Both the position numbers and the translations under genes were made by a program. Under the pieces are notes generated by a model. The model did not search any database. It worked only from the letters and a program-made list of their open reading frames with translations, and was not told where the DNA came from. A DNA stretch of 64,000 nt from an uncultured Dehalococcoidales bacterium (GTDB lineage Bacteria > Chloroflexota > Dehalococcoidia > Lucifugimonadales > Lucifugimonadaceae). The stretch's first letter is position 1. Every line of letters starts with the position of its first letter. Location: contig CAYYRD010000008.1 in NCBI GenBank assembly GCA_964474025.1, positions 53,593 to 117,592 of the forward strand, in the 5' to 3' direction. Shown piece after piece: positions 6,170 to 61,754 of this stretch.

Positions 6170-6529
6170 GTTGCTTGTCCCCCTATGACTTTCGCGTTTC
6201 TGACCACCGCCGGCAGGGTTACCTGCCTGTGGGTCTAGGCCTCGCCGTGATCCCAAGATGAACACTTTCCTCCACAGGATCGCTCCGCCTTTTGATCGAC
6301 GGCGCCGGCCCGTGATACGTCCCAATACTTCACATGGAAAACGCGCACATATACGCGCGGACTCCCGGGACTGGAGCCGAGCAGATGGATTCTTACACTC
6401 CGGTTAGGAGGCTGTCAAGAAGCCGGAAGCGCGCCAAACTGGGCGTTTCAGACAGGTTTCCAAACTCTTATCCGGTAGCGGATGAAGCCCCTCTGCGGGG
6501 CGCCCGACTCGGTTGTCGTGGCGGTCGCG

Positions 6530-14743: not shown

Positions 14744-16429
14744 TCAGGCACGGTCGTGTATCTCCACCGTTTGTGACGGGCCGTTAGTCATCATGACCAT
14801 GCTTTTCCCGGCGGGCCCGCCGAACGACACGATCTCGATCCGCTCCGGACGGTTGAACGCCGGGAAACTGGTGCGGGCCGCTTCTTCCGGGGATAGCTCC
14901 AGTAACCAGCGCCAGGGCGGCAGCAGCCAGTCCGGGTTGGCCTTGAACCCGTTGTGGAGTCCGGCCGCCGTCACGCGGGTCTTCGCCCACAGGTAGTCGC
15001 GCACCATGTCCTTTGACCATCCGGCATCTGTGCACACCCGGGCGTGGTCCGGGCAGAGGATCACCAGCGCCCCGCCCCCACCCTCGCGGTCGTACGGATC
15101 CGGGTCAGACCATCGGATGCCGAAATATCCGCCACCGCCTCGAATCCCGCCGGCCACGGTGTTCAGCACGCGCTCCGGGGTGAAGTTGTTAAGGTCCGCG
15201 GCGTCGATCAAGTTGCGCACCCCGGCCACCGTCACGGTGGAGGCACTCTTCGGGAATCCGCGCTCTTCAGCGAGCGACTCCCACGGGCCGCCTTCCACCG
15301 GCTCGGCGGCGCACAGCGAGAACTTGGAAGGCGCGCCGATGGTGTCCATGTCCATCTCGGTCGGGTAGTTGTGGCCGACATTCATCAGCACCAGCCGAAA
15401 CGCCCGCCCGAGGACGATGTTGACCCGCGACTGCTTGCCGGGACCGAGTGATGCCTTGCCGGTGTTCAATCCCAGTTCGTCCACGATAGGCCCGTTGAGC
15501 AGCATGATCGGCGCGTCCGGGCTTGTCGACATGAGCCACTGCCGCGCGCGAGAACCCATCTTGATGACCGCCTCACACGCGGCGATCAAGGCCGGGAGGT
15601 GTGACGGTTCGCATCCCGCCATCGCGGCGGATACAGCGATCTTCTGGACCGTCGCTATGCCCATTCCCGGGGGCAATATTCCGACGATGTGTTCCGGATC
15701 CAGTGACGTGCCGGACAGTATTTCGTTAACGCGTTCCGGTGTCGGCGGGAGCAGCGGGAGTCCATCTCCCCATCCGTTTTCCAGGAAGGCCTCGTTGAAC
15801 TGCGCCAGCGCGTCCATCTGATCTGTGCCGTCAAAATCAAGCGGCCCACCCGGCAACCGCTCCGGCAGGGGTCCGGAGTCTGCGAGGCCGGGCAGCGCTT
15901 CGGGATCGGTCAATCCCCGGACCACCACATCGATGCGCTCCGCAATGCTCGCCCGGGACCGTTCCGGCGGCACGCTCGTAATCACGTCCGGCACGACGAC
16001 GAAGGGAGCGCGAGGCATGCCGAAAACGCGTGCGCTCGCCACGGTGTCCTTCTCAAAGCCTGCGGACGCCACTGATACCGTGGGGATGCCCTTGCGCTCC
16101 AGGTAAATCATGTCGTGGACAAGCCACGACGTGCACTGCCCTCAGTCGCTTGAGGAGCCGACCACAACGTCACACTCCTCGGCCGCCCGGTCCAGCATGT
16201 CCGATGGTGTCGGGATGCTTCCCTGGTAGGTGGCCAGCTCGACGCCCGAGAAACGGTCGCTCAACATCGTACCCACCTGATCAAGGATGGCGTCTCCACC
16301 CCGTTTCCGGTTCCAGACGAGTCCCACCCGCAAACCGTCCAAGGTTGTGGGACGCGCTGCGATTTCCGTCTCGATTCCGGCCCCCTGCAGGGCGGCGACC
16401 GGGTTCATGACTGTGAGTTGGTGAGCCAT
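14744..16429 (-). CDS. GrdB/UGSC-like selenoprotein candidate (561 aa if the in-frame UGA at 16144-16142 is read as Sec)
   Basis: Track ORFs 16142..16429 and 14744..16111 are in the same frame (16144-16111=33) and separated only by TGA. The context is ...CDVVVGSSSD-U-GQCTSWLVHDMIYLERKGIPTVSV. GAGAGG Shine-Dalgarno before ATG 16429, but none before ATG 16111. Confidence 0.6.
16112..16130 (-). promoter_or_regulatory. SECIS-like stem-loop 11 nt downstream of the in-frame UGA
   Basis: mRNA GUCGUGG-CUUGU-CCACGAC: perfect 7-bp stem, 5-nt loop containing GU. Confidence 0.45.
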
Positions 16430-26217: not shown

Positions 26218-27504
26218 ATGTCATCCCGGCAATCTCCAATAAACGTCACGGACAACATCGGCCCACTCTCCCCCGCCTACAACCGGTGGAAATTGCGCGC
26301 CCTTTTTGGGTTCGTCGGCTTCTACGTGTTTGTCTACATGGGCCGATTCGCCCTCTGGCCCGCTGCACCGGTCATCAAAGACGACCTGGGGTTTACACAC
26401 GTCGAAATCGGCATAATCAACGCCGCCGTCCTGTGGGGATTCGGGTTGGGCGACCTCGTGCATGGACGAATGGCCGAGACCTACGGACTGCGGCTATGGG
26501 TAATGCTCGGCGCAATCTCGACCAGCATATTCGCCGTAATCACGAGCTTCGCAAACGGGATCTGGACCTTCGCCATCCCGTGGGGATTTGCCGGCTTCGT
26601 CAACGCCACTGCCTGGGCTCCCGGAGTATCCCTGATCACACAGTGGTGGCCCCGCACCCAGCGCGGGCGCGCGCTCGGTGTCGTTGGATTCGGGGCCGGA
26701 AGTGCCATGCTCGTGATGTGGCTCGTCACGGGATGGGTCGCGTCGGAGTGGGGCTGGCGTGCTGCCTTCAGGTATCCACCACTGCTGATCGGCATCGCCG
26801 GGGTCGTCTATTTCCTGGTCGTCCGGGACCGGCCATCTGACGTCGGGCTGGAGCCGTACGAAGAGGACCCAAATTCATATACAGGCCGCGCGGAAGCGGC
26901 TTCGGCCGGCCAGTTAAAAGGATTCGGCCCATACAAAATCCTGTTCACCAACTGGCGCTTTCTGGCCGCATCCCACGTCAAAGGCCTTGAGAACATCGTT
27001 CGATACGGGCTGACGACCTGGGTCCCAATCTACTACTTCGAAGAGGGTGGGCTATCGATCGAATCCACGGTGCTGGTGACGGTTGCCCTGCCTGTCGGAT
27101 ACCTGACCGCCCCGCTGTTCTCCGGCTACATCTCTGACAGGTTCCTGGGTAGCCGACGCCGACCCATGACTCTGGCATCTGCGTTTATCAGCGCCGCAGT
27201 GTTGGTGATCATCGCGTTCACTCCGGCAAACAACGAGTTTCTCGGAGCATTTCTCTTGCTCATCGGCGGGTTTGCCATGAGCCTCACTCTCATAGCCGCG
27301 ACCGCCGTCGACATCGGTGGTCGGCACATGGCGGCGACCGCCAGCGGAGTGCTCGACGCCCACGGATACGCTTACGCCGGCGCTCAGGCCCTCATATTCA
27401 GCGTCATCCTGGATGCCAGCGGCAGCCCGTGGGAAATCGTGTTTATCGCGATGGCCGGAGTCCGGCTCATCTCGGCCGGAATCATCTGGCTGGTGCGCAT
27501 CTAA
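26218..27504 (+). CDS. MFS transporter (sugar-phosphate/organic-anion permease-like)
   Basis: 12 predicted hydrophobic segments. GRFALWPAAPVIKDDLGF...GFGLGDLVHGRMAETYGLR resembles the MFS_1 loop 2-3 motif. Confidence 0.85.
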   Translation: MSSRQSPINVTDNIGPLSPAYNRWKLRALFGFVGFYVFVYMGRFALWPAAPVIKDDLGFTHVEIGIINAAVLWGFGLGDLVHGRMAETYGLRLWVMLGAISTSIFAVITSFANGIWTFAIPWGFAGFVNATAWAPGVSLITQWWPRTQRGRALGVVGFGAGSAMLVMWLVTGWVASEWGWRAAFRYPPLLIGIAGVVYFLVVRDRPSDVGLEPYEEDPNSYTGRAEAASAGQLKGFGPYKILFTNWRFLAASHVKGLENIVRYGLTTWVPIYYFEEGGLSIESTVLVTVALPVGYLTAPLFSGYISDRFLGSRRRPMTLASAFISAAVLVIIAFTPANNEFLGAFLLLIGGFAMSLTLIAATAVDIGGRHMAATASGVLDAHGYAYAGAQALIFSVILDASGSPWEIVFIAMAGVRLISAGIIWLVRI

Positions 27505-27584
27505 GCCCCGTGTAGACTGCGCCGAGCGAAAGCGCCTTGATGCGACGGTCATGGCAGCTACTTCGTCAGCCAGGGAGGTGTCTG

Positions 27585-28676
27585 ATGCGGATACCACGCA
27601 CCACGGAAGAGATCACGCCGGAGTGGCTGACCGAAGCGCTACGCGCCGGGGGACACCTGGACGAAGGGCGTGCCGAGTCTGTCCAGTTCGAGCGCATCGG
27701 TATTGGACTCGGATTCGCATCACTGGTGGCGCGCGGCGTCGTCCATTACGCAGACAATTCAGGGGATGCGCCAACGACAATCGTCGCGAAGTTGCCGTCC
27801 GGTCATGCTGAGACCGATGAACTGGTCACACGCATGGGATTTGCCGACCGTGAAGTCCGGTTTTTCAGCGAAATTGCCCTCAACGTTGGCGTCCCTGTTC
27901 CGCGCCATTACTACGCCGACAGCGATCGCTTGACGGGTGAATACGTTCTGTTGCTGGAAGACCTGTCCGAAGCGCGACCTGGCGATCAGGTGAACGGGTG
28001 TTCACCGGAAGACGCGGAACTTGTCGTCAGGAATCTCGCAATGTTGCACGCCCGGTGGTGGGAGAGCGGCCAGCTGGATAGTTTGGATTGGCTATTCGCT
28101 ACGGCAAATCCGGAAACACTTGGAGTGATAGCCGACAACTATAGATCCAACTGGGAGCGGGTCGCTGCGGCAGTCGGCTCCCGATTTCCTGACGGTGTTT
28201 ACACAATCGCCGAGCGTCTGGGGCCGCATTTCGAGGGAACGATGCGGCCACTCGGTGAATCTCCCGTCACGCTCAATCATGGCGACGGCCGACTCGGCAA
28301 CCTGTTTTTTCGAGACAACGGTGGGAGTCCCGAAGTCGTACGGATCGACTGGCAGTTGGCATCACAATCCCGTGGCGCAGCCGACCTGGCTTATTTCATC
28401 ATCTTCAGCTTTTCGCTGGAGGAACGGCGGCGACATGAAGGGGCCCTTCTACACATCTATCACGATGCGCTGGCGGAATACGGAGTCAGCGGTTATTCAT
28501 TCGATCAGCTGAATGACGACTACCGACTGGGATTGTTCCGCTTTCTGACGATAGGCGTCGGTGCGCTCGCCAACCTCGATATGGACAGCGAGGCCGGTCG
28601 AGCCACAATCGAGGCGGGGTTACCACGCCTGACGGGACTGGTCGACTGGGATTGCGGCGCGCTGATCCCGGATTAA
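27585..28676 (+). CDS. Phosphotransferase-family protein (APH / CHK / EcKL-like kinase), paralog 1
   Basis: MRIPRTTEEITPEWLTEAL..., catalytic LNHGDGRLGNLFF and IDWQLASQSRGAADLAYF. GGGAGG lies 6 nt before ATG 27585. Confidence 0.8.
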   Translation: MRIPRTTEEITPEWLTEALRAGGHLDEGRAESVQFERIGIGLGFASLVARGVVHYADNSGDAPTTIVAKLPSGHAETDELVTRMGFADREVRFFSEIALNVGVPVPRHYYADSDRLTGEYVLLLEDLSEARPGDQVNGCSPEDAELVVRNLAMLHARWWESGQLDSLDWLFATANPETLGVIADNYRSNWERVAAAVGSRFPDGVYTIAERLGPHFEGTMRPLGESPVTLNHGDGRLGNLFFRDNGGSPEVVRIDWQLASQSRGAADLAYFIIFSFSLEERRRHEGALLHIYHDALAEYGVSGYSFDQLNDDYRLGLFRFLTIGVGALANLDMDSEAGRATIEAGLPRLTGLVDWDCGALIPD

Positions 28677-28744: not shown

Positions 28745-29800
28745 CTGGCGATCCCCCGAACGCTGGACGAAATCACGCCCGAATGGCTGTCATCGGTGCT
28801 GCGCGTGAGCGTGGATTCGCTGATAGTCGAACCCACAGGAAACGGGTATACCGGTTCCCTTGGACGCCTGACAGTTAGTTATCCGCGCGACTCCGCCACA
28901 CCCGCCACACTCATCGCCAAACTACCGTCCACAGATTCCCAGATCCGCCGCTACGCCATCGATGATGGCATGTATCGCCGGGAAACCCGTTTCTATCAGG
29001 AGCTGGCGGCAGACTCCAGCATCTCTGTCCCGGACTGCTACCACGCGGAATTCGATAATGACTCCGGCGAATTCGTTCTCCTGCTCGAAGATCTGGTCGG
29101 ACTGGAAGAAGGCGATGAGCTCGCCGGATGCTCATTGGAGCAAGCGGCAAACGTCGTCCAGAGCCTCGCCCGTTTACACGCGGCCCGGTGGAACGACCAC
29201 CGCGTCAGCACACTTCAATGGCTCGTCGGCCCTGACTCTCCGTCGTCGACCGCCACCGGGCTTCAAAACATCTACGTGGATGCCTGGCAAAAAACGTCGA
29301 ACACCCTGGCCGAAATTTACCCGGCAGAGACGTATAAAATCGCGGACCGTCTCGGACCCGGACTCGCTTCCGTCCTGCGGACGGCAGAAACAGGGAACCA
29401 GGCGCTCAATCACGGCGATGCCCATCTCGGAAACACCTTCTTCCGGGGAGACGAGGCCGTATTCGTGGACTGGCAAAACGTCATGGTAACCAGCCCCGCG
29501 CTCGACATCGCTTACTTCGTACAGGGCAGCCTTCCCGTGGAAACGAGGCGCGCTAACGAACGCGATCTGCTCGACATCTACATGGACACGCTTGCCGAAA
29601 ACGGCGTGACCGGATACAGACAAGACCAGCTGATTCAGGATTACAGGCGAGGCCTCCTGAGAACCCTGATCCCATCGGTGTTGTCGATGGCCAACCTGGA
29701 CATGACCGCGCCAGAATCCCGCGATCTCGTGGAGACAATCGGCGCGCGCATGATCGGGATTGCAGACTGGGACTGCGGAGCGCTAATCCCGGCCTCATAA
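28745..29800 (+). CDS. Phosphotransferase-family protein (APH / CHK / EcKL-like kinase), paralog 2. Probable CTG start.
   Basis: LAIPRTLDEITPEWLSSVL aligns residue for residue with the paralog 1 N-terminus. LNHGDAHLGNTFF and VDWQNVMVTSPALDIAYF. The first canonical start (GTG 28796) would remove the conserved N-terminus. GGAGAG lies 8 nt before CTG 28745. Confidence 0.75.
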   Translation: MAIPRTLDEITPEWLSSVLRVSVDSLIVEPTGNGYTGSLGRLTVSYPRDSATPATLIAKLPSTDSQIRRYAIDDGMYRRETRFYQELAADSSISVPDCYHAEFDNDSGEFVLLLEDLVGLEEGDELAGCSLEQAANVVQSLARLHAARWNDHRVSTLQWLVGPDSPSSTATGLQNIYVDAWQKTSNTLAEIYPAETYKIADRLGPGLASVLRTAETGNQALNHGDAHLGNTFFRGDEAVFVDWQNVMVTSPALDIAYFVQGSLPVETRRANERDLLDIYMDTLAENGVTGYRQDQLIQDYRRGLLRTLIPSVLSMANLDMTAPESRDLVETIGARMIGIADWDCGALIPAS

Positions 29801-29848: not shown

Positions 29849-30817
29849 TTGCGGGCGCGGAATTTCGGCACACTTTTTTCGGTCAGGAGTCCCTTGGCAT
29901 CTTCGGAAGGTAATGCGACCCCCGGGCTGAGCCTCCTTGAAGCGGCCCGACGCTCCGGTCTCGACATCGCCGAGGCACACGAGCCCGCCGACAAGACCGT
30001 CGAGCTAAACGGCCTCAAGTTCCACTACCTTGACTGGGGCAATGACCACCTTCCAGACCTGCTCTTTTTGCACGGAACGGCGCAGCAGGGCCACTCCTGG
30101 GACTTCGCTTCGCTGGCGCTGCGGGATCGTTTCCACTGCATCGCCCTCGACCAGCGCGGCCACGGCGATTCCGAGTGGGATCCTGACGGCAACTACGGCG
30201 CGCCAACCTACGTTCCGGACGTAGCGGCCTTCGTTGACACGCTCGGTTTGCAGGACTTCGTTATGGTCGGCCACTCGATGGGTGGTCGTAACGCTTATAC
30301 CTACACATCCGCAAACCCGGACAAAGTCCGCGCCCTGATCGTCGTGGACGCCGGGCCCCGGATGGAAGAGCCGGGCGGCGCACGCGTCCGAAACTTCATG
30401 GCCGGACAGAGCCAGTTCGACACGTACGATGATCTCGTCGAGCGCGTCCACTCTTACCTTCCGTCCCGGCCCATCGAACAGTTGCGCGGGAGCCTGGTGC
30501 ACACGACCCGGCAGTTCCCGAACGGAAAATGGGCCTGGAAGTACGACCCCAACATCCGGCGACCGGTCAACGGCCCGGACGATTCCGAGGAAGCCCGCTG
30601 GGAGACGCTCTCAAAAATCACCTGCCCGACCCTCTACGTAATCGGCGGGGACAGTGAGATGCTCACCCCGCCGAGTATCGAGCGCATGCTGGCGGTCATC
30701 CCCGGCAGCAAGGCCGAAACGGTGGAGCGGGCGGGTCACCTGGTGGCGGGCGACAACCCGGCCGGATTCCATGCGGCCGTATCGCCCTTCCTGGATTCTT
30801 TGACGACATCGGCGTAG
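29849..30817 (+). CDS. Alpha/beta-fold hydrolase
   Basis: LLFLHGTAQQGHSWD...LDQRGHGDSEW...MVGHSMGG nucleophile elbow. TTG start is uncertain. Confidence 0.85.
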   Translation: MRARNFGTLFSVRSPLASSEGNATPGLSLLEAARRSGLDIAEAHEPADKTVELNGLKFHYLDWGNDHLPDLLFLHGTAQQGHSWDFASLALRDRFHCIALDQRGHGDSEWDPDGNYGAPTYVPDVAAFVDTLGLQDFVMVGHSMGGRNAYTYTSANPDKVRALIVVDAGPRMEEPGGARVRNFMAGQSQFDTYDDLVERVHSYLPSRPIEQLRGSLVHTTRQFPNGKWAWKYDPNIRRPVNGPDDSEEARWETLSKITCPTLYVIGGDSEMLTPPSIERMLAVIPGSKAETVERAGHLVAGDNPAGFHAAVSPFLDSLTTSA

Positions 30818-30976: not shown

Positions 30977-32236
30977 GTGTTCTGGCAGGGTTTCGGCGCG
31001 TTCTTCACGCCTATAGTCGACTCCTTCGGTTGGAGCCGTGGCGCCACAGCCCTGGCGTTATCGTTCAACCGCATCGAGTCTGGCGGGATGTCGATCGCTG
31101 TCGGTTATCTGCTCGACAAGTACGGCCCGCGCAAGTTGATGACATTCGGGCTGTTCGTCACCGGGCTCGGCTTCATCGGCATGAGCCAGATGCAGACCCT
31201 CTGGCACTTTTATGTCGTCATGGCCGTGCTCACTTTCGGCATGTCGTTCGGGACATTTATCCCCATCGTTGCGACGGTCGGAAACTGGTTCGTTCGAAAG
31301 CGAAGCCGGGCGATCGGATTCCTGATGTCGGCCTCCGCGGTCGGCGGTATGACCGCCCCACTCCTCGTGTGGTTCGTCGATACGCTCGGCTGGCGCGACG
31401 CGTTGTTATCGGTCGGGATCGGTTTCTGGGTGATCGGGATCCCCGCGATACTCGTGATGGTCCGGCAGCCGGAAGATGTCGGGTTGCGGCCCGACGGCGA
31501 TCCGGCGCCGCAACGGACGGCCAGCGGGCTTGAGCGACCCGTCATTCCAGAGCGTCGGATTCCAATCTTCACCGCTCTTAAAACGCGGTTCTTCTGGCAA
31601 CTCGCTGTCGGTACCAGCCTCGGCCACCTGGTCAGTTCTACGACCCTGCTGCACATCGACGCGATGCAGTCGTTCGATATCAGCCGGACCACCGCCGGCA
31701 TCGCCGTCTTTGGTTTTGGCCTGGGCAGTTTTATCGGCAGGCTGGGATCGGGAATCGTCGGAGATTACTGGGACAAGCGCTACATCATGGCCGCTGCGTT
31801 TTACATGCAGATCATCGGGGTACTGGGGCTCGTCTCATTGAACGCCACGATAGGCGGTGTCTTCCTGGGACAGTGGGGCCTCGTGTTCTACGCCGCCTTC
31901 TTCGGAGCGGGATTCGGATCAAGTATTCCGGTCAGGATGGCCATGATCGGCGATTACTTCGGCCGGCAAACCTACGGATCAATGCTAGGAATCATGAGCA
32001 CCGTGAACGCTGTGTTGGGCGCGCTTGGTCCCGTGTTCGTCGGCGTGATGTTTGACGTGACGGACACCTACCGCACGCCGTTCTTGCTACTGCTCGTGGT
32101 ACTGCTCGCGAGCGGCCCGATGATGCTGACGCTGGAGAAGCCGGCGAGGGTAAAGGCCCGATTCCGCATCGCAGCGCACAAGGCAGATCTCGCCGCCGCC
32201 GTCGAGGCCGAGGAAGCCGAAAAGTTTCAGAACTAA
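30977..32236 (+). CDS. MFS transporter. The N-terminus (TM1) lies upstream of the first canonical start.
   Basis: Hydrophobic 12-TM pattern. The same frame stays open upstream and reads RKPRLFHGWWIVGAGGLVQGYASG (TM1). ATG 30867 is in a different frame (see finding). Confidence 0.8.
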   Translation: MFWQGFGAFFTPIVDSFGWSRGATALALSFNRIESGGMSIAVGYLLDKYGPRKLMTFGLFVTGLGFIGMSQMQTLWHFYVVMAVLTFGMSFGTFIPIVATVGNWFVRKRSRAIGFLMSASAVGGMTAPLLVWFVDTLGWRDALLSVGIGFWVIGIPAILVMVRQPEDVGLRPDGDPAPQRTASGLERPVIPERRIPIFTALKTRFFWQLAVGTSLGHLVSSTTLLHIDAMQSFDISRTTAGIAVFGFGLGSFIGRLGSGIVGDYWDKRYIMAAAFYMQIIGVLGLVSLNATIGGVFLGQWGLVFYAAFFGAGFGSSIPVRMAMIGDYFGRQTYGSMLGIMSTVNAVLGALGPVFVGVMFDVTDTYRTPFLLLLVVLLASGPMMLTLEKPARVKARFRIAAHKADLAAAVEAEEAEKFQN

Positions 32237-36682: not shown

Positions 36683-38305
36683 CTAAACGAGTTGGAAGGG
36701 CGGCGCCATTATTGGCAGGCTGACATGGATCAAAAACGGCTCGTCCAGCGCCAGGGCTTCCTGCAACGCGGCCTTCAAGCCAACAGGCGTGTCCACGCCC
36801 TTCGAGCGGATGCTGAACGCCGCAGCAAGCGTGTCCCAGTCCGGGTTGAAGAACTCGGTTCCTATCTCGCGGTCCCCGTATCGATGCTCCTGATCCCACC
36901 GGGAGGCCCCGAAGGCGCCGTTGTCGAACACCACCACCACGAGGTTGATGCCGTGCTGTTTCGCCGTCGCCAATTCCTGCGGGCTGTACATGAAGCCCCC
37001 GTCGCCACAGAGGGCGACCACCGGCCGATCACCCGCCGCCATTTTGGCTCCGAGGGCCGTCGGGAAGCTGAAGCCGAGGTTGCCGAAGTAGCCGGAGGTG
37101 ATGAACTCGCCGCCCTCCCGCACATCGTAGGCGATGTGACTCCAGTAGCCGATATTGGTCATGCCGGCGATCAACACAGCGTCGTCCCCGGTAGCTTCCC
37201 TGACGGCGTTGACCCATGCCAACTGAACGGGCGCAGCGTCATCGAGGAAAGCCTGCAACTTCTCGCGGTACACCGACGCGCGTTCACCCGCCGAACCATC
37301 GCCCTTATCCACACCACATCCCTGGAGAGCATCGCAGACCGCCGAGATGCCTGCTTTGGCGTCCGCCTGAATGGCGATCGTGGTGCCGTGGTCCTTATCG
37401 AGCTCCCGTTGATCGACATCGATCTTGATGATCGTCTGCCCGTCCTTCGCCTTGAACCCGGGCACCATGAACCGCGTCCCAGCGACCAGGATCACATCGG
37501 AATCGGCGAGCAGCTCTCCGCTGACCCCGATCTGGGCGTAATGCACACCCACGTACTGCGGATGGCCTGCTGGAACGCTGCCTTTTGCCTGCTGCGTTCC
37601 GACTATCGGAGCATCCAGCATCTCGGCCATCGCGGCGACCTCCGGTCCCGCCTCCGCACGCAGAACCCCACCCCCGATAACGATCGCTGGCTTCTCAGCA
37701 CCGGCAAGCGCTTCGGCGGCGCGGGCGACAAGGTCATCCGCGGGTTGCTGCGCCGCGTAAAGCTCGGCCTCTATGATCTCGACCTCACCCGTGGCGGCGA
37801 GGATGTCCGGCGGGATCTCCAGTTCCACGGGCCGCGGCCGGCCGGTAGTCATCTGCTTGAACGCCTCGTGGATCGCGCCCGGGATCTCCGAAACGGACGA
37901 CACCCGTGTGTTCCATTTGACGATGGGCTTGAAAACATCAAGCTGTTCCTCGACCTCGTGCAGTTGACCTTCGCCTTTGCCGAGCGAACCGCTGGCTATC
38001 TGGCCGGAGATGAGCAACACGGGCGACGAAGCGGCGTAGGCCGTCCCGACCGCCGCGGTGGCGTTCAAAGCGCCGGGACCGGGGACGACGAGGGCCACGC
38101 CGGGTTTACGTGCGACGCGGGCGTATCCGTCCGCCATGTAGGCGGTTGTCTGCTCATGCCTGGTGCTGATTAGCCGGATTGACTGGCTGTCATGGAGTGC
38201 GTCAAACGCCGCCATGATCTGGACGCCGGGGAGCGCAAAAACCGTGTCCACGCCCTCCGCTTCAAGCGATCTGCGAAGTGCTTCTGCGCCGGTCATCTCG
38301 GGCAT
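36683..38305 (-). CDS. Thiamine-pyrophosphate-dependent enzyme (acetolactate synthase large-subunit family)
   Basis: MPEMTGAEALRRSLEAEGVDTVFALPGVQIMAAFDAL...STRHEQTTAYMADGYARV and a C-terminal GDGGFMYSPQELATA TPP motif. Start is ATG 38305 (codon 57 of the track ORF). Confidence 0.85.
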   Translation of the reverse strand: MPEMTGAEALRRSLEAEGVDTVFALPGVQIMAAFDALHDSQSIRLISTRHEQTTAYMADGYARVARKPGVALVVPGPGALNATAAVGTAYAASSPVLLISGQIASGSLGKGEGQLHEVEEQLDVFKPIVKWNTRVSSVSEIPGAIHEAFKQMTTGRPRPVELEIPPDILAATGEVEIIEAELYAAQQPADDLVARAAEALAGAEKPAIVIGGGVLRAEAGPEVAAMAEMLDAPIVGTQQAKGSVPAGHPQYVGVHYAQIGVSGELLADSDVILVAGTRFMVPGFKAKDGQTIIKIDVDQRELDKDHGTTIAIQADAKAGISAVCDALQGCGVDKGDGSAGERASVYREKLQAFLDDAAPVQLAWVNAVREATGDDAVLIAGMTNIGYWSHIAYDVREGGEFITSGYFGNLGFSFPTALGAKMAAGDRPVVALCGDGGFMYSPQELATAKQHGINLVVVVFDNGAFGASRWDQEHRYGDREIGTEFFNPDWDTLAAAFSIRSKGVDTPVGLKAALQEALALDEPFLIHVSLPIMAPPFQLV

Positions 38306-38457
38306 GTTGGGGTCTTTCTTATCTGGTGGAGGTGGTAGCCGACGGCATTGTAGGCCGGGAAAGACTGCATCCGACGCGCCCACTGCATTCTGAAGGCCAC
38401 GACCCACACATTGCGGCGATCCGTACAATCCACTGGCCGAGGGCCACCGAGAGGAAA

Positions 38458-39495
38458 TTGTTGTTGACTTCACATCCGTCCGGCGAAGGCCTGCCCGCCG
38501 GCAAATTGCCGGGTGAGCTGCTGGCGCGCTTGCTATCCAGGATCCAGCGTGACGATCCGCGGGTGATCGTCGGGCCGGGTGTCGGCGAGGATGCGGCGTT
38601 CGTCGACTTCGGCGAAACCCTGCTCGTCGCGAAAAGCGACCCCGTGACCTTCGCGACCGATCTGATCGGCTGGTACACGGTGCAGGTAAACGCCAACGAT
38701 GTTGCGTGTTGCGGTGCGGTGCCGAAGTGGTTCCTGGGAACGGCTTTGCTGCCCGTAGGCACCACGCCGGATCAGGTGGAACGCATATTCGACCAGATCT
38801 CGGATGCTTGCGACGCGCTCGGCATCACGATGATCGGCGGCCACACCGAGATGACGCTCGACCTGCCGCGCCCGATCGTTGCCGGGACGATGCTGGGTGA
38901 GGTGACAAAAGGCGAAGAGGTGATGACGGCGGGCGCACGCCCTGGTGACCGCGTGATCCTGACCAAGGGGATCGCCATCGAGGGAACGTCACTTCTCGCA
39001 CGTGAGATGCGTCCGCAACTCGAGCTTGCCGGGGTTCCGGCGGGCGTGATCGACCGGGCAGCAAACTACCTGTACGAACCCGGGATCAGCGTAGTCCCGG
39101 AGGCGCGCATCGCACATGCCGCCGGGGGTGTCACGTCGATGCACGACCCGACGGAGGGCGGGCTGGCCACGGCGCTGGCCGAGCTCGCGACGGCATCAAG
39201 CACCGGGGTCGCGATCGACGGAGACGCCGTCCCGATCCTGCCGGAAGCGGCGGAGCTTTGTGCCGCGCTCGGGGTCGACCCGTGGGGACTCATCTCGTCC
39301 GGCGCCTTGCTCATTACGGCCCGGTCGGAAAGCGCCGCAAAGATAGTCGATGCCGTAACCGCGGCAGGGATCCGGGCGACCGATATCGGCGAGATCAGGC
39401 CGGTCGGCGAAGGGCTACTGCTACGCCGGGAGGGCGTTGAAACGCCCCTCCCTGCGTTCGAGCGGGATGAACTTGCGCGCGTGCTGGGAGAATAG
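38458..39495 (+). CDS. AIR-synthase-related (PurM/HypE/ThiL superfamily) protein
   Basis: GKLPGELLARLL...VGPGVGEDAAFVDF...DLIGWYTVQVNANDVACCGA...GGHTEM. Three consecutive TTG codons at 38458-38466 follow GAGAGGA. Confidence 0.7.
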   Translation: MLLTSHPSGEGLPAGKLPGELLARLLSRIQRDDPRVIVGPGVGEDAAFVDFGETLLVAKSDPVTFATDLIGWYTVQVNANDVACCGAVPKWFLGTALLPVGTTPDQVERIFDQISDACDALGITMIGGHTEMTLDLPRPIVAGTMLGEVTKGEEVMTAGARPGDRVILTKGIAIEGTSLLAREMRPQLELAGVPAGVIDRAANYLYEPGISVVPEARIAHAAGGVTSMHDPTEGGLATALAELATASSTGVAIDGDAVPILPEAAELCAALGVDPWGLISSGALLITARSESAAKIVDAVTAAGIRATDIGEIRPVGEGLLLRREGVETPLPAFERDELARVLGE

Positions 39496-48016: not shown

Positions 48017-48199
48017 TTCGACTCAAATCGTGACCGATGGGTGTGCGACCGGTTTCCGGAAGCAACCATGCTACCGCTGCCTCGCCCAAAAGCCGATGGT
48101 GTTCGATAGTCGTTGGCCCGTTTGATATGCTTTCCGTTCGTAAGAATGATAAAGCTGGCGATAGATCTGTCCGTTCAGATCGCCACCGGAGACGGATAT

Positions 48200-49099
48200 T
48201 TGGTAGTCGATTCCGGGAACACCGGCAGGAAAGTTGAACGCCGGCTCCCCGAGTGGTTCAAGGTCCCGATGCCGGCCGGAGAAAATTTCTCCGACCTGAA
48301 AAAGCGTATGCGAGGGGCAAGCCTGCACACGGTCTGCGAGGAAGCCGCCTGCCCCAACATCGGGGATTGCTGGGACCGGCGCACGGCGTCGTTCATGATC
48401 CTGGGCGACACCTGCACCAGGGCCTGCTCATATTGCAACGTGAAGACGGGTCGGCCGACCGAGACCGACTGGGCGGAGCCGTTCCGGCTGGCCCAGACGA
48501 TAAAAGACATGGAACTCAAGTACGCCGTCATCACCTCGGTCGATCGGGACGACCTCGAAGACGCCGGTTCGACGATATTCGCGATGACGATCAAGGCAGT
48601 CCATAAATCCACGCCGGGCTGCAAGGTCGAGGTGCTCATACCAGACTTCGGGGGCGACCGGGAGTCACTCCAGAGAGTTATGGACGCCCGGCCCGAGGTG
48701 CTGAACCACAACATCGAGACCGTCAGGCGCGTGTTCCGCAAGGTCCGGCCGGCGGGGGATTACGACCTGTCGCTTGAACTCCTGAGGCGTGCGAAAGAGA
48801 TGCGACCGGATGGAGTGACCAAGTCCGGGATGATGGTCGGACTCGGCGAGACGATGGACGAGGTGTTCGAGACGATGGGGGATCTGCGCGCCAACGGTTG
48901 CGATCTGCTGACCGTCGGCCAGTACCTCCGCCCGTCCAAACGGCACCACCCGATCATCCGGTTTTACAACCCGGCCGAGTTCGAAAGGATTCGTGAAGCG
49001 GGCGAGGCGATGGGTTTCAGCCACGTCGCATCGGGCCCGCTGGTGCGATCGTCCTATCATGCCGACGAGCAGCACGAAGCGTCTCTCGCCAGCCCGTAG
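48200..49099 (+). CDS. lipA: Lipoyl synthase
   Basis: LPEWFKV...LHTVCEEAACPNIGDCW...GDTCTRACSYCNV radical-SAM and auxiliary cluster motifs. TTG 48200 follows GGAGA at 7 nt. The track start at 48113 is also possible. Confidence 0.9.
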   Translation: MVVDSGNTGRKVERRLPEWFKVPMPAGENFSDLKKRMRGASLHTVCEEAACPNIGDCWDRRTASFMILGDTCTRACSYCNVKTGRPTETDWAEPFRLAQTIKDMELKYAVITSVDRDDLEDAGSTIFAMTIKAVHKSTPGCKVEVLIPDFGGDRESLQRVMDARPEVLNHNIETVRRVFRKVRPAGDYDLSLELLRRAKEMRPDGVTKSGMMVGLGETMDEVFETMGDLRANGCDLLTVGQYLRPSKRHHPIIRFYNPAEFERIREAGEAMGFSHVASGPLVRSSYHADEQHEASLASP

Positions 49100-49177
49100 A
49101 GTCACGGCGTTGGACGTGGTCCCTTCTCCAACACACGAGCGAAGTAGCGCATCCACAGGCCGAATACGAGAAACGGC

Positions 49178-49969
49178 ATGGATAACACCCCCGAAACCGT
49201 ACTGCCCACCAGGCTCGGCCCGATTCGAGTCCGCCACCCTGAGGGAACCTTCGTCCCATCGGAGGCCAGCCGGATCGCCCTGGTTGCGATCGGAACACAC
49301 CAGGAGTTGCTCCACGGCAACGGCATCGATTGGGGCAGTGGAAGCGGATGCCTGGCGATCGCGACGTCGAAAGTGCCTGCGGTGCGAAAGGTCACCGGCC
49401 TGGAACTCTCCGATGTCGGCGTAACCGCCGCTCGCGCAAACGCCCTCGTCAACGATGTGTCTGAGAAAACCCGGTTCATCGCGGCGAACTCGTTCGCGCC
49501 CGCGTCGGACGACGATGCGAAGACGCTCGATAGTCTCCGGGGCCACACAGACTTCCTCATCGCCAATCCGCCTTCGAGCGAGGGTGACGGGTTCGAGTTT
49601 TACCGACGCGTGCTGAGAGAGGCGGGGGAGTTCCTCGTAGACGGCGCGCCGGTCTTCATGACCACTTCCATCCAGTACGGCACGAAGCGGGTGGAAGGGC
49701 TGGCCCGGGAGTGTCCGGGATTCAGTTACGAGGGAATCCTGGCAAGTACGGACTGGGTCCCGTTTGACCTGGATCGCCCGGACCTGATGCATTGCCTTGA
49801 GCTTTACGCGCAAGTGGAAGACCGAGGTGGTCCCGAATACGAGTTCGGCGGGATAGAGGGCGGCGTCACCGGTATGACCGACGCCCGGACCGCGCTGGCG
49901 GAGTTTCAACGCAGCCGCCGCCGTCCCCTGACGAAGTGGCTGACGTACCTGTTCGTACGTCGACTTTAG
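49178..49969 (+). CDS. Class I SAM-dependent methyltransferase (HemK/PrmC-like small-domain type, NPPS motif)
   Basis: IDWGSGSGCLAIA (motif I) and DFLIANPPSS (motif IV). Confidence 0.7.
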   Translation: MDNTPETVLPTRLGPIRVRHPEGTFVPSEASRIALVAIGTHQELLHGNGIDWGSGSGCLAIATSKVPAVRKVTGLELSDVGVTAARANALVNDVSEKTRFIAANSFAPASDDDAKTLDSLRGHTDFLIANPPSSEGDGFEFYRRVLREAGEFLVDGAPVFMTTSIQYGTKRVEGLARECPGFSYEGILASTDWVPFDLDRPDLMHCLELYAQVEDRGGPEYEFGGIEGGVTGMTDARTALAEFQRSRRRPLTKWLTYLFVRRL

Positions 49970-50002
49970 TCGAACCGGGAACAAGCACGTCGGCGCCGCC
50001 GT

Positions 50003-58684: not shown

Positions 58685-59080
58685 TCACACGTTTGGATAC
58701 CAGGCGCCTTCACACTCGATCGCCTCATCATCGCCGGGCCAGGCCGGGACCGTGGCGATCACGATTTCCAGTGGAGTGCTGCCGTCATTCGTGAACTGAA
58801 ATCGAGTCCCCGTAGCGATACTCGCCCCGGTGCCGGGAACCAGGTCAACCGTTTCCTGGACCCCATCCCGCGAGCGCCAGAGCCTGCCCTCGCCGGAGAT
58901 ACAGAGCCAGGTTTCAGCGACCGTCACGTGGTGGACAGCTTTCGTGGTCCCACCCGGTTTCAGCGTGCAGTGCACCATGCTCACCGCGGCCATCGCCACG
59001 CTCACCAGGCGGATTTCCGATCCATCTGGCGCAATTACGTCCAGCTCCTCAGAAATCTGCCGTGACTCAAACGTAGTCAT
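58685..59080 (-). CDS. Cupin-domain protein
   Basis: 131 aa, beta-rich, HHVTVAETWLCISGEG...GASIATGTRFQF. GGGAGGGAA Shine-Dalgarno. Confidence 0.7.
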   Translation of the reverse strand: MTTFESRQISEELDVIAPDGSEIRLVSVAMAAVSMVHCTLKPGGTTKAVHHVTVAETWLCISGEGRLWRSRDGVQETVDLVPGTGASIATGTRFQFTNDGSTPLEIVIATVPAWPGDDEAIECEGAWYPNV

Positions 59081-60650: not shown

Positions 60651-61754
60651 TCAGGCCGGGTGGTAAAGCTCCGTCTCCGGGTAAAAGTCTGACCACGCGA
60701 ACCAGAACGACACCACGGAGTGAACGCGCTCAAGCTGCTCCCCTTCCAGCTCCCCGTCGATTCCACGCCCCGTGAACGGCAGGAACAGCGATCCCGTCTT
60801 CTTGTCGCGAAGCAGCGCAGTACCGTCATCAACGATCACCTGCTCAAACTCCAGGCGGCGTCCCTCCAGATCACGGTTGTAAACAAGCGCCGTATCAGTA
60901 TCAGGCTTGAAAAACACAACCACGTCCTCGCCGGCAACCCGATCATTCACGACCGGATTGTCGTCGAGAGCCGACAGCGGAAACGCCTTCGGACCGCCAT
61001 CGAAGCCGACTCCAAGGATCTTGTCCTTACGGGCCAATCGCTCATCGTAGACGGACTCGCCGATCACGCCGGCGTCGTTGTTGGCGTAGTAGCCATCGTA
61101 CGGATCGGACGATCCGCTTCGTCCCTTGTCCAGGATCGCGGTGTCGGGGTGTTCACGCACCCACTGGCCGAAAGTGGTCTGCACGAGTGGAATGATCTCG
61201 AGCCTTCGGCCGGCCAGTTCTCCTTTGACACCCTGTGAAAGGAACTGGCTCCAAAGAGTACCGCTCTGATGGTCGTACATCACGAGCGCGTTCTTGATCA
61301 ATTTTCCGGACACACCAAACGTGTGATCTTCGCCGTTTATCGTCCGGGCATACCCGATGCCGGTAAAGCACAGCGGTCACCAGGTGACGGCGATCGGAAC
61401 TCCGCCGACGGTGTCGTTGACGACCTCCCGCCCGCTCAGAAAGGGAATCGAGTAGGCACGGCTGTCGCCGTGGATCGATACGCCCAGGACGGGTTCATCC
61501 GCTGCGTATCGGGTTGCCGCCGCCGGCGTGATGAAGCGAGGGTTGAGAATCGCCTGGATGCCGTCACGCGGTAACAACGTAACCAGCTCCAGAGTGCGGT
61601 CGAAAGATGCCGGGTCGTCGGGATCAGCGGGCACGATGATTGTCTCCTTGCTCAACAGCGCGACTCGTAACGCCTGTGGTCCGTCCATGGCAAAGAAAAG
61701 GACGATTCCCGCCACGGCCAGGCCCATGAACAGATATGACTTCTGGATTCTCAT
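60651..61754 (-). CDS. Membrane-anchored DUF3179-family selenoprotein candidate (367 aa if UGA 61379-61377 is read as Sec)
   Basis: Track ORFs 61377..61754 and 60651..61313 share a frame (61379-61313=66) and are separated only by TGA. The junction reads GGVPIAVTW-U-PLCFTGIGYARTINGEDHTFGVSGKLIKNALVMYDHQSGTLWSQ. The N-terminal half alone ends exactly where DUF3179 proteins have their CPLC motif. Confidence 0.65.
61344..61363 (-). promoter_or_regulatory. SECIS-like stem-loop 13 nt downstream of the in-frame UGA
   Basis: mRNA CCGGCAU-CGGGU-AUGCC(C)GG: 7 bp with one bulged C, 5-nt G-rich loop ending in GU. Confidence 0.4.

Follow-up and report, generated by a model that had tools for sequence, protein, structure and literature searches.

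One DUF3179 gene read across an in-frame UGA

Two adjacent open reading frames (ORFs) on the minus strand of the window, the whole 64,000-nucleotide stretch of DNA from an uncultured marine Chloroflexota bacterium analyzed here, very probably form a single gene encoding a DUF3179 protein of 366 residues whose residue 126 is selenocysteine (Sec). The complete coding sequence (60651..61754, minus strand, as for all parts of this gene given below) comprises 367 codons. It begins at ATG 61754, carries an in-frame UGA at codon 126 (61377..61379) in the context VTW-TGA-PLC, where it supplies the U of a U-P-L-C motif, and ends at a terminal TGA (60651..60653) shortly after the Pfam profile, whose match ends at residue 361 of 367. 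The partner of Sec126 in this UxxC pair, Cys129, is encoded by a TGC (61368..61370) and is invariant in close homologs. An earlier, sequence-only reading of this DNA had proposed such an arrangement, and its description of the locus held up in every particular: the 125-aa ORF at 61377..61754 on the minus strand ends in TGA, the next codons are CCG CTG TGC (P-L-C), and the frame stays open until the terminal TGA, with exactly one internal TGA between 61754 and 60651. The GTG at 61313, from which the downstream ORF was called, was likewise correctly described as lacking a Shine-Dalgarno sequence; none is found in the 25 nt upstream (aaacggcgaagatcacacgtttggt), and this GTG is the codon of the invariant Val148 in an FGVSG motif.

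A search of the read-through translation against PF11376 (DUF3179), which the sequence-only reading had suggested as a check, came out in favor of a single gene. With U replaced by C, the translation matched the profile at 278.5 bits (cutoff 27; E = 9.3e-83), the alignment taking in the whole profile (1-292 of 292) without a break at the TGA, and homologs mostly have Cys at the position aligned to the TGA. The tryptic peptide over codon 126 is EVVNDTVGGVPIAVTW-U-PLCFTGIGYAR.

The same reading had presented the gene as a candidate new selenoprotein family, a claim that has to be withdrawn. "DUF3179 domain-containing protein, pfam11376, UxxC/T" is an entry in Table 1 of Zhang et al. 2022 (PMC9312934), and a 2026 review places DUF3179 under "Predicted with high confidence" (PMC13188914). 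In their treatment of the family, both articles attribute it to Zhang & Gladyshev 2007 and class it as predicted, not experimentally verified. The name DUF3179 is absent from the 2007 primary paper, in which no matching family was identifiable. The parts of the two articles that deal with the family give no lineage distribution and do not mention Chloroflex, SAR202, or Dehalococc; selenoproteins as such are known in Chloroflexi (PMC1794560). In the window gene, the xxC/T motif opens with the one in-frame UGA, and the gene shares with the listed selenoprotein the Pfam domain, the single Sec, the U-x-x-C position, and a SECIS-type hairpin just downstream, with no essential difference. It is a member of the listed DUF3179 Sec form (UxxC/T), and the list of known selenoprotein families is unchanged.

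Conservation of the UGA codon and its flanks

The codon is TGA in 72 of the 80 species-representative Chloroflexota/Dehalococcoidia genomes, several of the 72 assemblies being complete long-read chromosomes, such as OZ240222.1 and OZ241984.1; its recurrence across 72 independent species-level assemblies is far beyond chance. Thirteen other gene copies among the related loci have TGT or TGC there, as more distant copies do. The sequence-only reading had named a CPLC motif in this family and had taken the TGA to replace its first Cys. Both points proved correct: Cys occupies the column aligned to the TGA in 41 of 46 full-length homologs and in 128 of 138 domains from a more diverse set of the DUF3179 family, and the Sec/Cys pairs seen in homologs agree with the proposed replacement. 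CPLC is the commonest 4-mer at the motif (104/138), and a few homologs in both sets have Ser at the Sec position. The Cys129 column is Cys in all 46 close homologs and in 119 of the 138 wider family domains, among which CPLT, CPLA, and CPLI variants occur; across these 138 domains, conservation is higher at the first motif position than at the fourth.

The Cys forms (CPLC) resemble the window gene in architecture, in the N-terminal hydrophobic segment, and in the invariant residues, at 38-62% identity, and a tandem Cys copy from the same lineage (P0001, at locus L004) reaches 79%. They differ in having TGT/TGC for TGA and in reading Y-D-R (UAC GAC CG) where the Sec forms read Y-A/S-R (UAU GCC/UCC CG).

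Constraint on the frame is of the same kind on both sides of the TGA. The entropy at the three codon positions is 0.53/0.33/1.42 before the TGA and 0.46/0.46/1.28 in the 21 codons that follow it, and in all Sec forms no stop interrupts the downstream frame for at least 189 codons. Before a restart becomes possible, at codon 148, this frame encodes five invariant residues (L128, C129, R137, F146, and G147).

A covarying SECIS-type hairpin downstream of the UGA

A putative bacterial SECIS-type hairpin lies within the coding sequence (61344..61363), with its stem starting 13 nt and its loop 20 nt after the UGA and the 5-nt loop CGGGU (61352..61356) at its apex. This is the hairpin CCGGCAU-CGGGU-AUGCC(C)GG that had been described from the sequence, and we could confirm it at that distance. 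We then aligned 71 distinct downstream sequences from TGA-form genomes. The stem corresponds to alignment columns 17-23/29-35, the window copy being shifted to column 36 with one bulged C. Pairing is preserved in 97.6% of the stem cells, compared with 12-54% in slid controls, and compensatory changes on both sides are found in three of the seven stem pairs; pair 18-34 is GC33/UA33, pair 21-31 is CG38/GU23/AU9/UA1, and pair 20-32 is GC69/CG1. The observed covariation score was reached by none of 500 shuffles, and RNAalifold recovers the same helix, a 7-bp stem with a 5-nt loop. The loop consensus is N-G-[G/U]-N-U, with G25 and U28 in 71/71 sequences and column 26 divided between G (39) and U (32). 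At the synonymous sites in columns 30 and 33, the entropy is 0.10, as opposed to 1.1-1.9 elsewhere. Sec forms keep on average 6.84 of the seven stem pairs and Cys forms 3.38, the hairpin being broken in the latter because their downstream sequence reads Y-D-R rather than Y-A/S-R.

The hairpin owes its significance to this comparative evidence and not to thermodynamics. On the folding check suggested along with the original claim, the hairpin is conserved and covaries in the relatives, and for the window itself single-sequence thermodynamics is uninformative: the 60-nt fold has -16 kcal/mol and is no more stable than shuffles (z = -0.39). The window hairpin alone, with a C-C mismatch or bulge, is worth -5.3 (5 bp) to -7.2 kcal/mol (bulged C); the bare hairpin averages -7.9 kcal/mol in the family, and 32 of the 71 sequences lie at or below -7.5. 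As given in the legend to Fig. 2 of the 2026 review, the bacterial SECIS consensus has a loop of 3-9 nt, a stem of 4-16 bp, a spacing of 16-37 nt from the UGA, a G at one or both of the first two loop positions, as a rule with G/U next, and a minimum free energy of -7.5 kcal/mol or less (PMC13188914). The DUF3179 element has a 7-bp stem capped by a 5-nt loop, an invariant G at the second loop position (71/71), G or U at the third, and a spacing of 20 nt (alignment columns 4-23). Judged by these features, the predicted hairpin fits the published consensus apart from its marginal stability. The comparison with orthologs that had also been proposed thus bears out the claim, with TGA or TGT/TGC at the same codon and the hairpin conserved in the TGA forms.

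A second in-frame TGA gene and the search for Sec machinery

The window holds a second gene with a conserved in-frame TGA, a UGSC-family selenoprotein gene (PF24696 / NF041046; 14744..16429, minus strand) in which the TGA stands at the family's U position. Both the TGA and a hairpin are kept in 19/19 relatives. Like the DUF3179 gene, it has its UGA in a UxxC-type motif (U-G-x-C) with a 7-bp/5-nt hairpin shortly downstream; unlike it, it belongs to an unrelated family, had no N-terminal hydrophobic segment noted, and has the hairpin loop CUUGU, with the G at position 4 instead of position 2. Its product continues into a C-terminal region of ~390 aa without a Pfam match. This gene, with its conserved TGA, shows that the same organism recodes UGA elsewhere.

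Around 60 pairs of ORFs in the window are joined by one TGA, nearly all of them overlapping or off-frame noise of GC-rich DNA, and only the DUF3179 and UGSC pairs have homology support. One further pair, a Cupin and a methyltransferase ORF meeting at TGA 58687..58685, was rejected as two adjacent genes that share a frame by chance. No selA, selB, selC (tRNA-Sec), or selD was found in the 64-kb window by ARAGORN, by Rfam at gathering and permissive thresholds, or by Pfam/NCBIfam searches of the ORFs, and the 81 fetched loci of relatives contained no tRNA-Sec; selA, selB, and selD were also not found in the fetched loci. For Sec machinery in this organism, the UGSC gene with its conserved TGA and hairpin, coming from a known selenoprotein family, offers indirect support. 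An ORF with AIRS/AIRS_C domains (38278-39495) was considered as SelD and discarded: it scores 75.8 bits against TIGR00476, whose cutoff is 125, falls below the thiL and hypE cutoffs as well, and has no GxGCK-type N-terminus.

Alternative readings of the UGA

Taken together, Sec/Cys pairs in homologs, a TGA shared by 72 species, a covarying hairpin that is absent from the Cys forms, equal constraint on both flanks, and another selenoprotein gene within the window make it almost certain, as far as comparative sequence evidence goes, that UGA codon 126 is decoded as Sec. The decoding claim of the sequence-only reading is accordingly upheld.

Three other readings of the codon were weighed against this one. 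The TGA could be a true stop, giving two polypeptides (125 aa and ~216-220 aa) or a pseudogene, or it could be an assembly error for TGC/TGT. Gene callers do annotate two ORFs, and stand-alone C-terminal fragments make up 75 of the best 120 database matches, although the start codons of such fragments are chosen arbitrarily and differ between callers. Codon 148, which encodes the conserved Val of FGVSG and lacks a Shine-Dalgarno sequence, offers the first in-frame start downstream of the TGA, and the 21 codons before it contain invariant residues and show coding-type constraint; the Pfam domain runs unbroken across the TGA, and a split would sever the first repeat of the protein inside a beta-sheet domain. 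Together with the TGA's recurrence in independent assemblies, some of them complete chromosomes, these observations render a true stop or a consensus error extremely improbable and refute it as far as sequence analysis allows. Reading of TGA as a sense codon throughout the organism, as in codes 4 or 25, draws on nothing beyond the in-frame TGAs themselves, and we give it practically no credence. A TGA also terminates the DUF3179 gene itself, directly behind the stretch matched by the Pfam profile, which refutes a genome-wide reassignment, since one UGA of the same mRNA is decoded and another terminates; neighboring genes with Pfam support (apt, recF, Maf, ABC permease, solute-binding protein, and epimerase) likewise end at TGA, the residue aligned in homologs is Cys and not Trp or Gly, and only two genes in the 64 kb have a convincing in-frame TGA.

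It is very unlikely, too, that the UGA is recoded to Cys or passed by near-cognate read-through, for example by a selC*-type tRNA-Cys(UCA) delivered by a SelB-like factor. Such tRNAs read UGA as Cys in some anaerobic bacteria (PMC5389517), and the lack of Sec machinery within the 64-kb window would suit them. They were reported from Firmicutes, Thermodesulfobacteria, Nitrospirae, and Proteobacteria, not from Chloroflexi, for which the same study reports a true tRNA-Sec (PMC5389517). Moreover, maintaining a TGA and a costly hairpin over 72 species merely to insert Cys would be unparsimonious given the tandem paralogs with TGT/TGC, as at locus L004.

Architecture and fold of the DUF3179 protein

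The sequence-only reading had also assigned the protein an N-terminal membrane anchor. A single hydrophobic segment is indeed present, at residues 6-25 (SYLFMGLAVAGIVLFFAMDG; 61680..61739), preceded by R2 and K5; it is the only one in the protein, has a Kyte-Doolittle mean of 1.89 over 19 residues, and may serve as a signal anchor or signal peptide. In the AlphaFold2 model of a homolog, residues 2-25 form an N-terminal helix. These features suggest an N-in/C-out topology, in which the product is probably displayed outside the cytoplasmic membrane.

The remainder consists of two DUF3179 repeats. The N- and C-terminal halves align over 127 residues at 28% identity (BLASTP, E = 4e-16), with VTW-C/U-PLC-FTG opposite VFF-K-PDT-DTA. 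Repeat 1 (residues 82-207; 61134..61511) carries U126-P-L-C129, and repeat 2 (residues 239-363; 60666..61040) has K-P-D-T at the motif position, without Cys or Sec. Sec126 and Cys129 are the only Cys/Sec positions in the whole protein. H109, E110, D114, D161, and H202 are invariant or nearly so in the homolog alignment.

We read the fold from the AlphaFold2 model of a Cys form with 62% identity (P0002; pLDDT 92.4), which is beta-rich with short helices and a duplicated domain. On this model, the DUF3179 protein consists of a beta-rich domain duplicated in tandem, and its predicted fold is not thioredoxin-like. Foldseek searches of the P0002 model against the PDB gave no match at E <= 0.001 (best E = 0.014), and no thioredoxin-fold structure was among the 50 matches listed; membership in the thioredoxin-fold thiol:disulfide oxidoreductases was rejected on these grounds. 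Sequence searches of the PDB returned no match with the single protein and only noise with a profile. The weak Foldseek matches were to Rieske ferredoxins and NirD-type domains (probability 0.9-1.0, target-normalized TM 0.45-0.61, ~90-115 columns), which resemble one DUF3179 repeat in a weak local fold and in a Cys-containing loop after a beta-hairpin. Membership in the Rieske [2Fe-2S]/NirD-like proteins was also rejected, with E values of 0.014 or higher, no profile support, no CxH...CxxH pattern, and U126 and C129 as the only candidate residues of their kind.

Proposed decoding and function

In the bacterial Sec pathway, the SECIS element brings SelB with GTP and Sec-tRNA(Sec) to the ribosome at the UGA. 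By analogy, the 7-bp/5-nt hairpin 13 nt after the UGA would act as a bacterial SECIS, recruiting SelB with GTP and Sec-tRNA(Sec) while the UGA occupies the A site, so that Sec would be inserted at codon 126 and translation would go on. The second UGA, 241 codons downstream and without a SECIS-type element, would lead to termination. The N-terminal signal anchor would place the product outside the cytoplasmic membrane, where repeat 1, which alone keeps U-P-L-C, could act on an extracytoplasmic substrate in a selenenylsulfide cycle in which Sec126 attacks and Cys129 resolves. SelB dependence, topology, and redox chemistry are all what we infer for this protein.

An extracytoplasmic thiol-oxidoreductase-like role for DUF3179, as the sequence-only reading had envisaged, is plausible. 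We tentatively regard a selenol/thiol redox enzyme as the most likely function of the Sec form, with somewhat less than even confidence. The CPLT, CPLA, and CPLI variants among the 138 domains keep only the first Cys, and the CxxC/CxxT/CxxA variation, taken with the placement of the Sec, suggests that the first residue of the motif is the catalytic one. Like DUF3179, DsbA-like, DsbG-like, and thiol:disulfide interchange selenoproteins have a UxxC motif whose N-terminal, nucleophilic residue is Sec; they too are predicted to be extracytoplasmic and have homologs in a Cys form, and the selenenylsulfide chemistry proposed here is the same as for these envelope selenoproteins of the thioredoxin fold. 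The fold differs, however, so DUF3179 may work alike but is not of their family. Conserved next to the gene are apt (37 loci) and recF (35 loci), followed by MazG-like, membrane protein, and amidohydrolase genes; no redox partner is found among them, and these housekeeping genes offer no functional clue. These neighbors, the non-thioredoxin fold with no significant PDB match, and the Ser that a few homologs have in place of Sec speak against the redox role.

U126 and C129 could instead form a metal site in what would still be a selenoprotein, for Cu(I), Hg(II), or Zn or as a remnant of a Rieske-like cluster loop, which would bind, pass on, or sense metal on the outer side of the membrane. UxxC motifs are also listed for cation-transporting ATPase, metal-binding protein, and CobW-related selenoproteins in the tables that list DUF3179 (PMC13188914). 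The only consistent weak fold matches are the Rieske ferredoxins and NirD-type domains, and the five conserved His, Glu, and Asp residues named above would suit such a site. The E values of all these fold matches, the profile search of the PDB, which gave no relevant match, and the missing Rieske ligand pattern argue against it, and the CPLT/CPLA/CPLI variants and the UxxT forms of the reviews are hard to square with a bidentate site. We consider a metal site rather unlikely, though a serious competitor of the redox enzyme.

The redox reading can be extended to a more specific proposal, which as a whole we hold to be doubtful: a non-thioredoxin class of extracytoplasmic selenol/thiol oxidoreductases, built on a duplicated, distantly Rieske/NirD-like beta-domain with an active U/CxxC only in repeat 1, whose Sec form would be carried by nearly all marine Dehalococcoidia, SAR202 records included. 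Were this true, Sec decoding would be a core, largely unannotated trait of a very abundant deep-ocean lineage, with implications for the selenium demand of deep-ocean Dehalococcoidia. Because the Sec form occurs in 72 of 80 species representatives and the window also holds the UGSC gene, the data suggest in any case that Sec use is common in the abundant marine Dehalococcoidia/SAR202-type lineage.

Annotation of the Sec form

The main practical value of these results lies in correcting the widespread mis-annotation of the DUF3179 Sec gene. NCBIfam has no model for the DUF3179 Sec protein, without which annotation pipelines cannot mark the Sec. The identical gene on JGI contig Ga0104999_1000172 is split into pieces of 125 aa and 216 aa, and truncated entries that begin shortly after the TGA and cover only the C-terminal part account for ~10% of the closest family representatives, as they do for the 75 of 120 best database matches mentioned above. 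Merging the two ORFs gives back the complete domain and, with it, the protein's only redox-capable residues.

A UGA codon within a continuous DUF3179 gene

The DUF3179 locus is one gene whose conserved UGA aligns with Cys in homologs, and a co-varying hairpin of SECIS type accompanies the UGA forms only. The coding sequence runs in one frame of 367 codons on the minus strand, from the ATG at 61754 to a terminal TGA at 60653..60651. Only one TGA interrupts this frame, at codon 126 (61379..61377), where the sequence reads ...GGVPIAVTW-TGA-PLCFTGIGYAR.... Read with Cys at the TGA, the product matched Pfam DUF3179 (PF11376) in one stretch over profile positions 1-292 of 292 (E-value 9.3e-83; 278.5 bits, cutoff 27). 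The first in-frame start codon 3' of the TGA is the GTG of codon 148, which encodes the invariant Val of FGVSG and is preceded by no Shine-Dalgarno-like sequence; the family-invariant residues L128, C129, R137, F146, and G147 fall between the TGA and this codon. A sequence-only reading had described the frame, the TGA context, the DUF3179-like region, and the unsupported GTG; every detail was borne out, including by the profile search that it had proposed across the TGA. Gene calling on the JGI metagenome contig Ga0104999_1000172 broke an identical gene into two products, of 125 and 216 aa, and each of them matches PF11376.

We scanned one genome per GTDB species, which yielded 80 loci, all from Chloroflexota/Dehalococcoidia MAGs (two of the records are titled SAR202 cluster bacterium). 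A TGA occupies exactly the position of codon 126 (...VTW-TGA-PLC-FTGI...) in 72 of the 80 loci, while 13 gene copies in 8 loci carry TGT or TGC (...TY-C-PLC...); one locus ends before the motif. The same reading had placed the TGA on a conserved Cys of a CxxC pair and proposed looking for orthologs with TGA or TGC at this codon, and the homologs agree. Among the best 120 database matches, the aligned column of the 45-46 full-length homologs holds Cys in 41, Ser in 4, and Arg in 1, and Cys129 is kept in all of them. The other 75 "proteins" (about 214-237 aa) all begin 3' of the motif, and are therefore truncated calls of TGA forms.

In one locus, L004 (JAQBUX010000064.1), a Cys-form DUF3179 gene (TGT; protein P0001, "partial" in NCBI) lies directly 5' of a Sec form (TGA); counted from 0, the two motif codons start at offsets 174 and 1344. 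Five further loci (L056, L072, L073, L075, and L077) have Cys-form paralogs in tandem, which fall into a CPLC-FTG and a CPLC-RSG subtype.

A covarying hairpin downstream of the UGA

We aligned, without gaps, 71 distinct 60-mers beginning at the UGA. These share a stem of 7 bp, in which columns 17-23 pair with 29-35, capped by a 5-nt loop. Standard pairs fill 97.6% of stem cells, a share that falls to 12-54% once the 3' arm is shifted 1-3 columns out of register, and RNAalifold independently predicted the same helix. Three of the seven pairs change on both sides: 18-34 (GC 33/UA 33), 21-31 (CG 38/GU 23/AU 9/UA 1), and 20-32 (GC 69/CG 1). None of 500 shuffles reached the observed covariation score. 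This covariation crosses the protein code, coupling the third base of a Gly codon (GGC/GGG/GGA) to an Ala/Ser replacement (GCC/UCC), and columns 30 and 33, which are the synonymous sites of the 3' arm, hardly vary (entropy 0.10 versus 1.1-1.9 at other third positions). Cys-form genes, which read UAC GAC CG at the hairpin site, keep 3.38 of 7 pairs, compared with 6.84 in Sec forms. The conserved ortholog hairpin that the sequence-only reading had proposed to look for is thus present, and it covaries.

As a yardstick, we used the bacterial SECIS consensus as worded in the Fig. 2 legend of PMC13188914. The DUF3179 element fits its loop (5 nt; consensus 3-9), stem (7 bp; 4-16), spacing from the UGA (20 nt; 16-37), and the G in loop positions 1-2 followed by G/U (G25 in 71/71; column 26 G 39/U 32). 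The window's own hairpin, which carries a C-C mismatch or bulged C, is marginal in energy (-5.3 to -7.2 kcal/mol versus a consensus of <= -7.5 kcal/mol), and its 60-nt fold showed no extra stability over shuffled sequence (z = -0.39). The case for a functional element is a comparative one, and by analogy with the established bacterial pathway, SelB with GTP and Sec-tRNA(Sec) would bind the hairpin and insert Sec at UGA126. The terminal UGA, having no SECIS-type element, would lead to termination.

Other explanations of the internal TGA were weighed against these data. A sequencing error, a pseudogene, or a split gene is excluded by the TGA conservation across 72 loci, the Cys homologs, and the even codon-position entropy of the 73 Sec-form genes on both flanks (0.53/0.33/1.42 in the 30 codons 5' of the TGA; 0.46/0.46/1.28 in the first 21 codons 3'), together with a frame that meets no stop for at least 189 codons 3' of the TGA in all 73. 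This disposes of the two alternatives raised beforehand, a consensus error and two separate polypeptides. Nor is TGA a general sense codon, since the DUF3179 gene and several Pfam-supported neighbors end in TGA. Recoding to Cys could run through a UGA-to-Cys selC* tRNA, and those reported come from phyla other than Chloroflexi (PMC5389517). We regard each of the following as very improbable: that the UGA is recoded to Cys, that the gene is split, that the TGA is an assembly error, and that the code is reassigned.

Sec machinery and a second recoded gene

The 64-kb window contains no tRNA genes; Rfam returned nothing at gathering thresholds, with tRNA-Sec absent even at permissive ones, and no ORF of the window matched SelA or SelB. 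An AIRS/AIRS_C (PurM-superfamily) protein at 38278..39495 (+) was considered as SelD, but its scores fall short of the curated cutoffs for selD (76 vs 125), thiL (107 vs 184), and hypE (100 vs 251); it is AIR-synthase-related and no confident SelD. Selenoproteins are on record for Chloroflexi (PMC1794560), as is their tRNA-Sec, with an unusual 8/4 structure (PMC5389517).

The window encodes a second gene with an in-frame TGA (16144..16142), at 14744..16429 (-), in the context ...VVGSSSD-U-GQC-TSW.... Its read-through product matches the Pfam "UGSC family" (PF24696; profile 2-171 of 172, E = 5.5e-37) and NCBIfam NF041046, "UGSC family (seleno)protein" (1-145 of 147; 103.5 bits, under the equivalog cutoff of 125). 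A hairpin of 7 bp and 5 nt (GUCGUGG-CUUGU-CCACGAC; 16112..16130, -) starts 11 nt 3' of the UGA. Both the TGA and the almost invariant hairpin, synonymous sites included, are found in 19/19 metagenomic relatives covering the site (57-93% protein identity). This gene offers good, if indirect, evidence that the organism probably decodes Sec. C-terminal to its UGSC domain lies a fused region of ~390 aa (14744..15900, -; approximately residues 175-561) that has no Pfam or NCBIfam match, and this architecture is kept in about 25 marine metagenome contigs at 57-93% identity.

Architecture and possible function

The sole hydrophobic segment of the DUF3179 protein, residues 6-25 following Arg2 and Lys5, looks like a signal anchor or signal peptide that would place the domain outside the membrane. 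The domain contains an internal tandem duplication (residues 82-207 vs 239-363, BLASTP E = 4e-16; window 60666..61511, -), and the motif occurs in repeat 1 only (VTW-U-PLC vs VFF-K-PDT in repeat 2). Apart from U126 and C129, the protein has no Sec or Cys. A PDB search by sequence gave nothing significant. We describe the fold from an AlphaFold2 model of P0002, the closest full-length Cys form (62% identity), which is confident (pLDDT 92.4, pTM 0.88) and mostly beta. Foldseek against PDB found nothing at E <= 0.001 for this model; the sole consistent weak local matches, resembling one repeat, were Rieske ferredoxins and NirD-type domains, and no thioredoxin fold appeared among the 50 matches listed.

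An exhaustive profile search recovered 16,141 family representatives at E <= 0.001. Across 138 diverse domains covering the motif, position 1 is Cys in 128, Ser in 9, and His in 1, and position 4 is Cys in 119, Thr in 8, Ala in 6, and Ser in 3, with variants such as CPLT, CPLA, and CPLI. By these counts the Sec position is the better conserved, and its partner is dispensable in some members. Such conservation fits a catalytic nucleophile whose resolving residue is optional, in agreement with the "UxxC/T" of reviews. Tentatively, the protein may be an extracytoplasmic selenol/thiol oxidoreductase cycling through a U126-C129 selenenylsulfide. The leading alternative for the function, a metal-binding site formed by U126 and C129, seems less likely. 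In about 35-37 loci the conserved neighbors are recF, upstream and divergent, and apt, on the downstream side; both have housekeeping roles and say nothing of function.

Relation to known selenoproteins and extent of mis-annotation

"DUF3179 domain-containing protein, pfam11376, UxxC/T" appears in Table 1 of Zhang et al. 2022 (PMC9312934), which that paper presents as a full listing of the prokaryotic selenoprotein families reported, and a 2026 review (PMC13188914) classes DUF3179, with one Sec, as "Predicted with high confidence". For DUF3179, both cite Zhang & Gladyshev 2007, from which the DUF name is absent. The window's gene shares the domain, motif, and Sec position of the selenoprotein in these reviews, and belongs, as an unremarkable member, to a family already known from computational prediction. 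The initial proposal of a selenoprotein thus holds, given the conserved TGA and hairpin, but that of a new family does not, as these entries precede it. Our additions are incremental: the Sec form prevails across the marine Dehalococcoidia lineage, covariation backs the DUF3179 SECIS quantitatively, the domain is internally duplicated, and the extent of mis-annotation has been gauged.

NCBIfam has no model for the DUF3179 selenoprotein. The 75 fragments among the best 120 matches begin at arbitrary codons just after the TGA, as do about 14-16 of the top 149 family representatives (sizes about 214-251 aa). They include the database matches P0003-P0011 and P0046-P0120, and P0150, P0162-P0170, and others; several carry the NCBI name "DUF3179 domain-containing protein" and no partial flag.

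Other genes of the window

One further TGA, the stop of a Cupin_2 gene (58685..58687, -), is in frame with the next methyltransferase ORF. We rejected it as a Sec site and judged it a coincidence because homology does not extend over the junction and two genes were called there on the identical JGI contig. Three long ORFs on the minus strand have no Pfam match at E <= 1e-5: 3278..6325 (1015 aa), which exceeds chance length, 2037..3158 (373 aa), and 48665..49984 (439 aa). The last overlaps an opposite-strand lipoyl-synthase-like radical-SAM ORF (48113..49099) and may be spurious. Finally, two adjacent paralogous EcKL/APH-type kinase-like genes (27537..28676 and 28796..29800, +) adjoin an alpha/beta hydrolase gene (29849..30817) and are flanked by MFS transporter genes (26218..27504 and 30977..32236).
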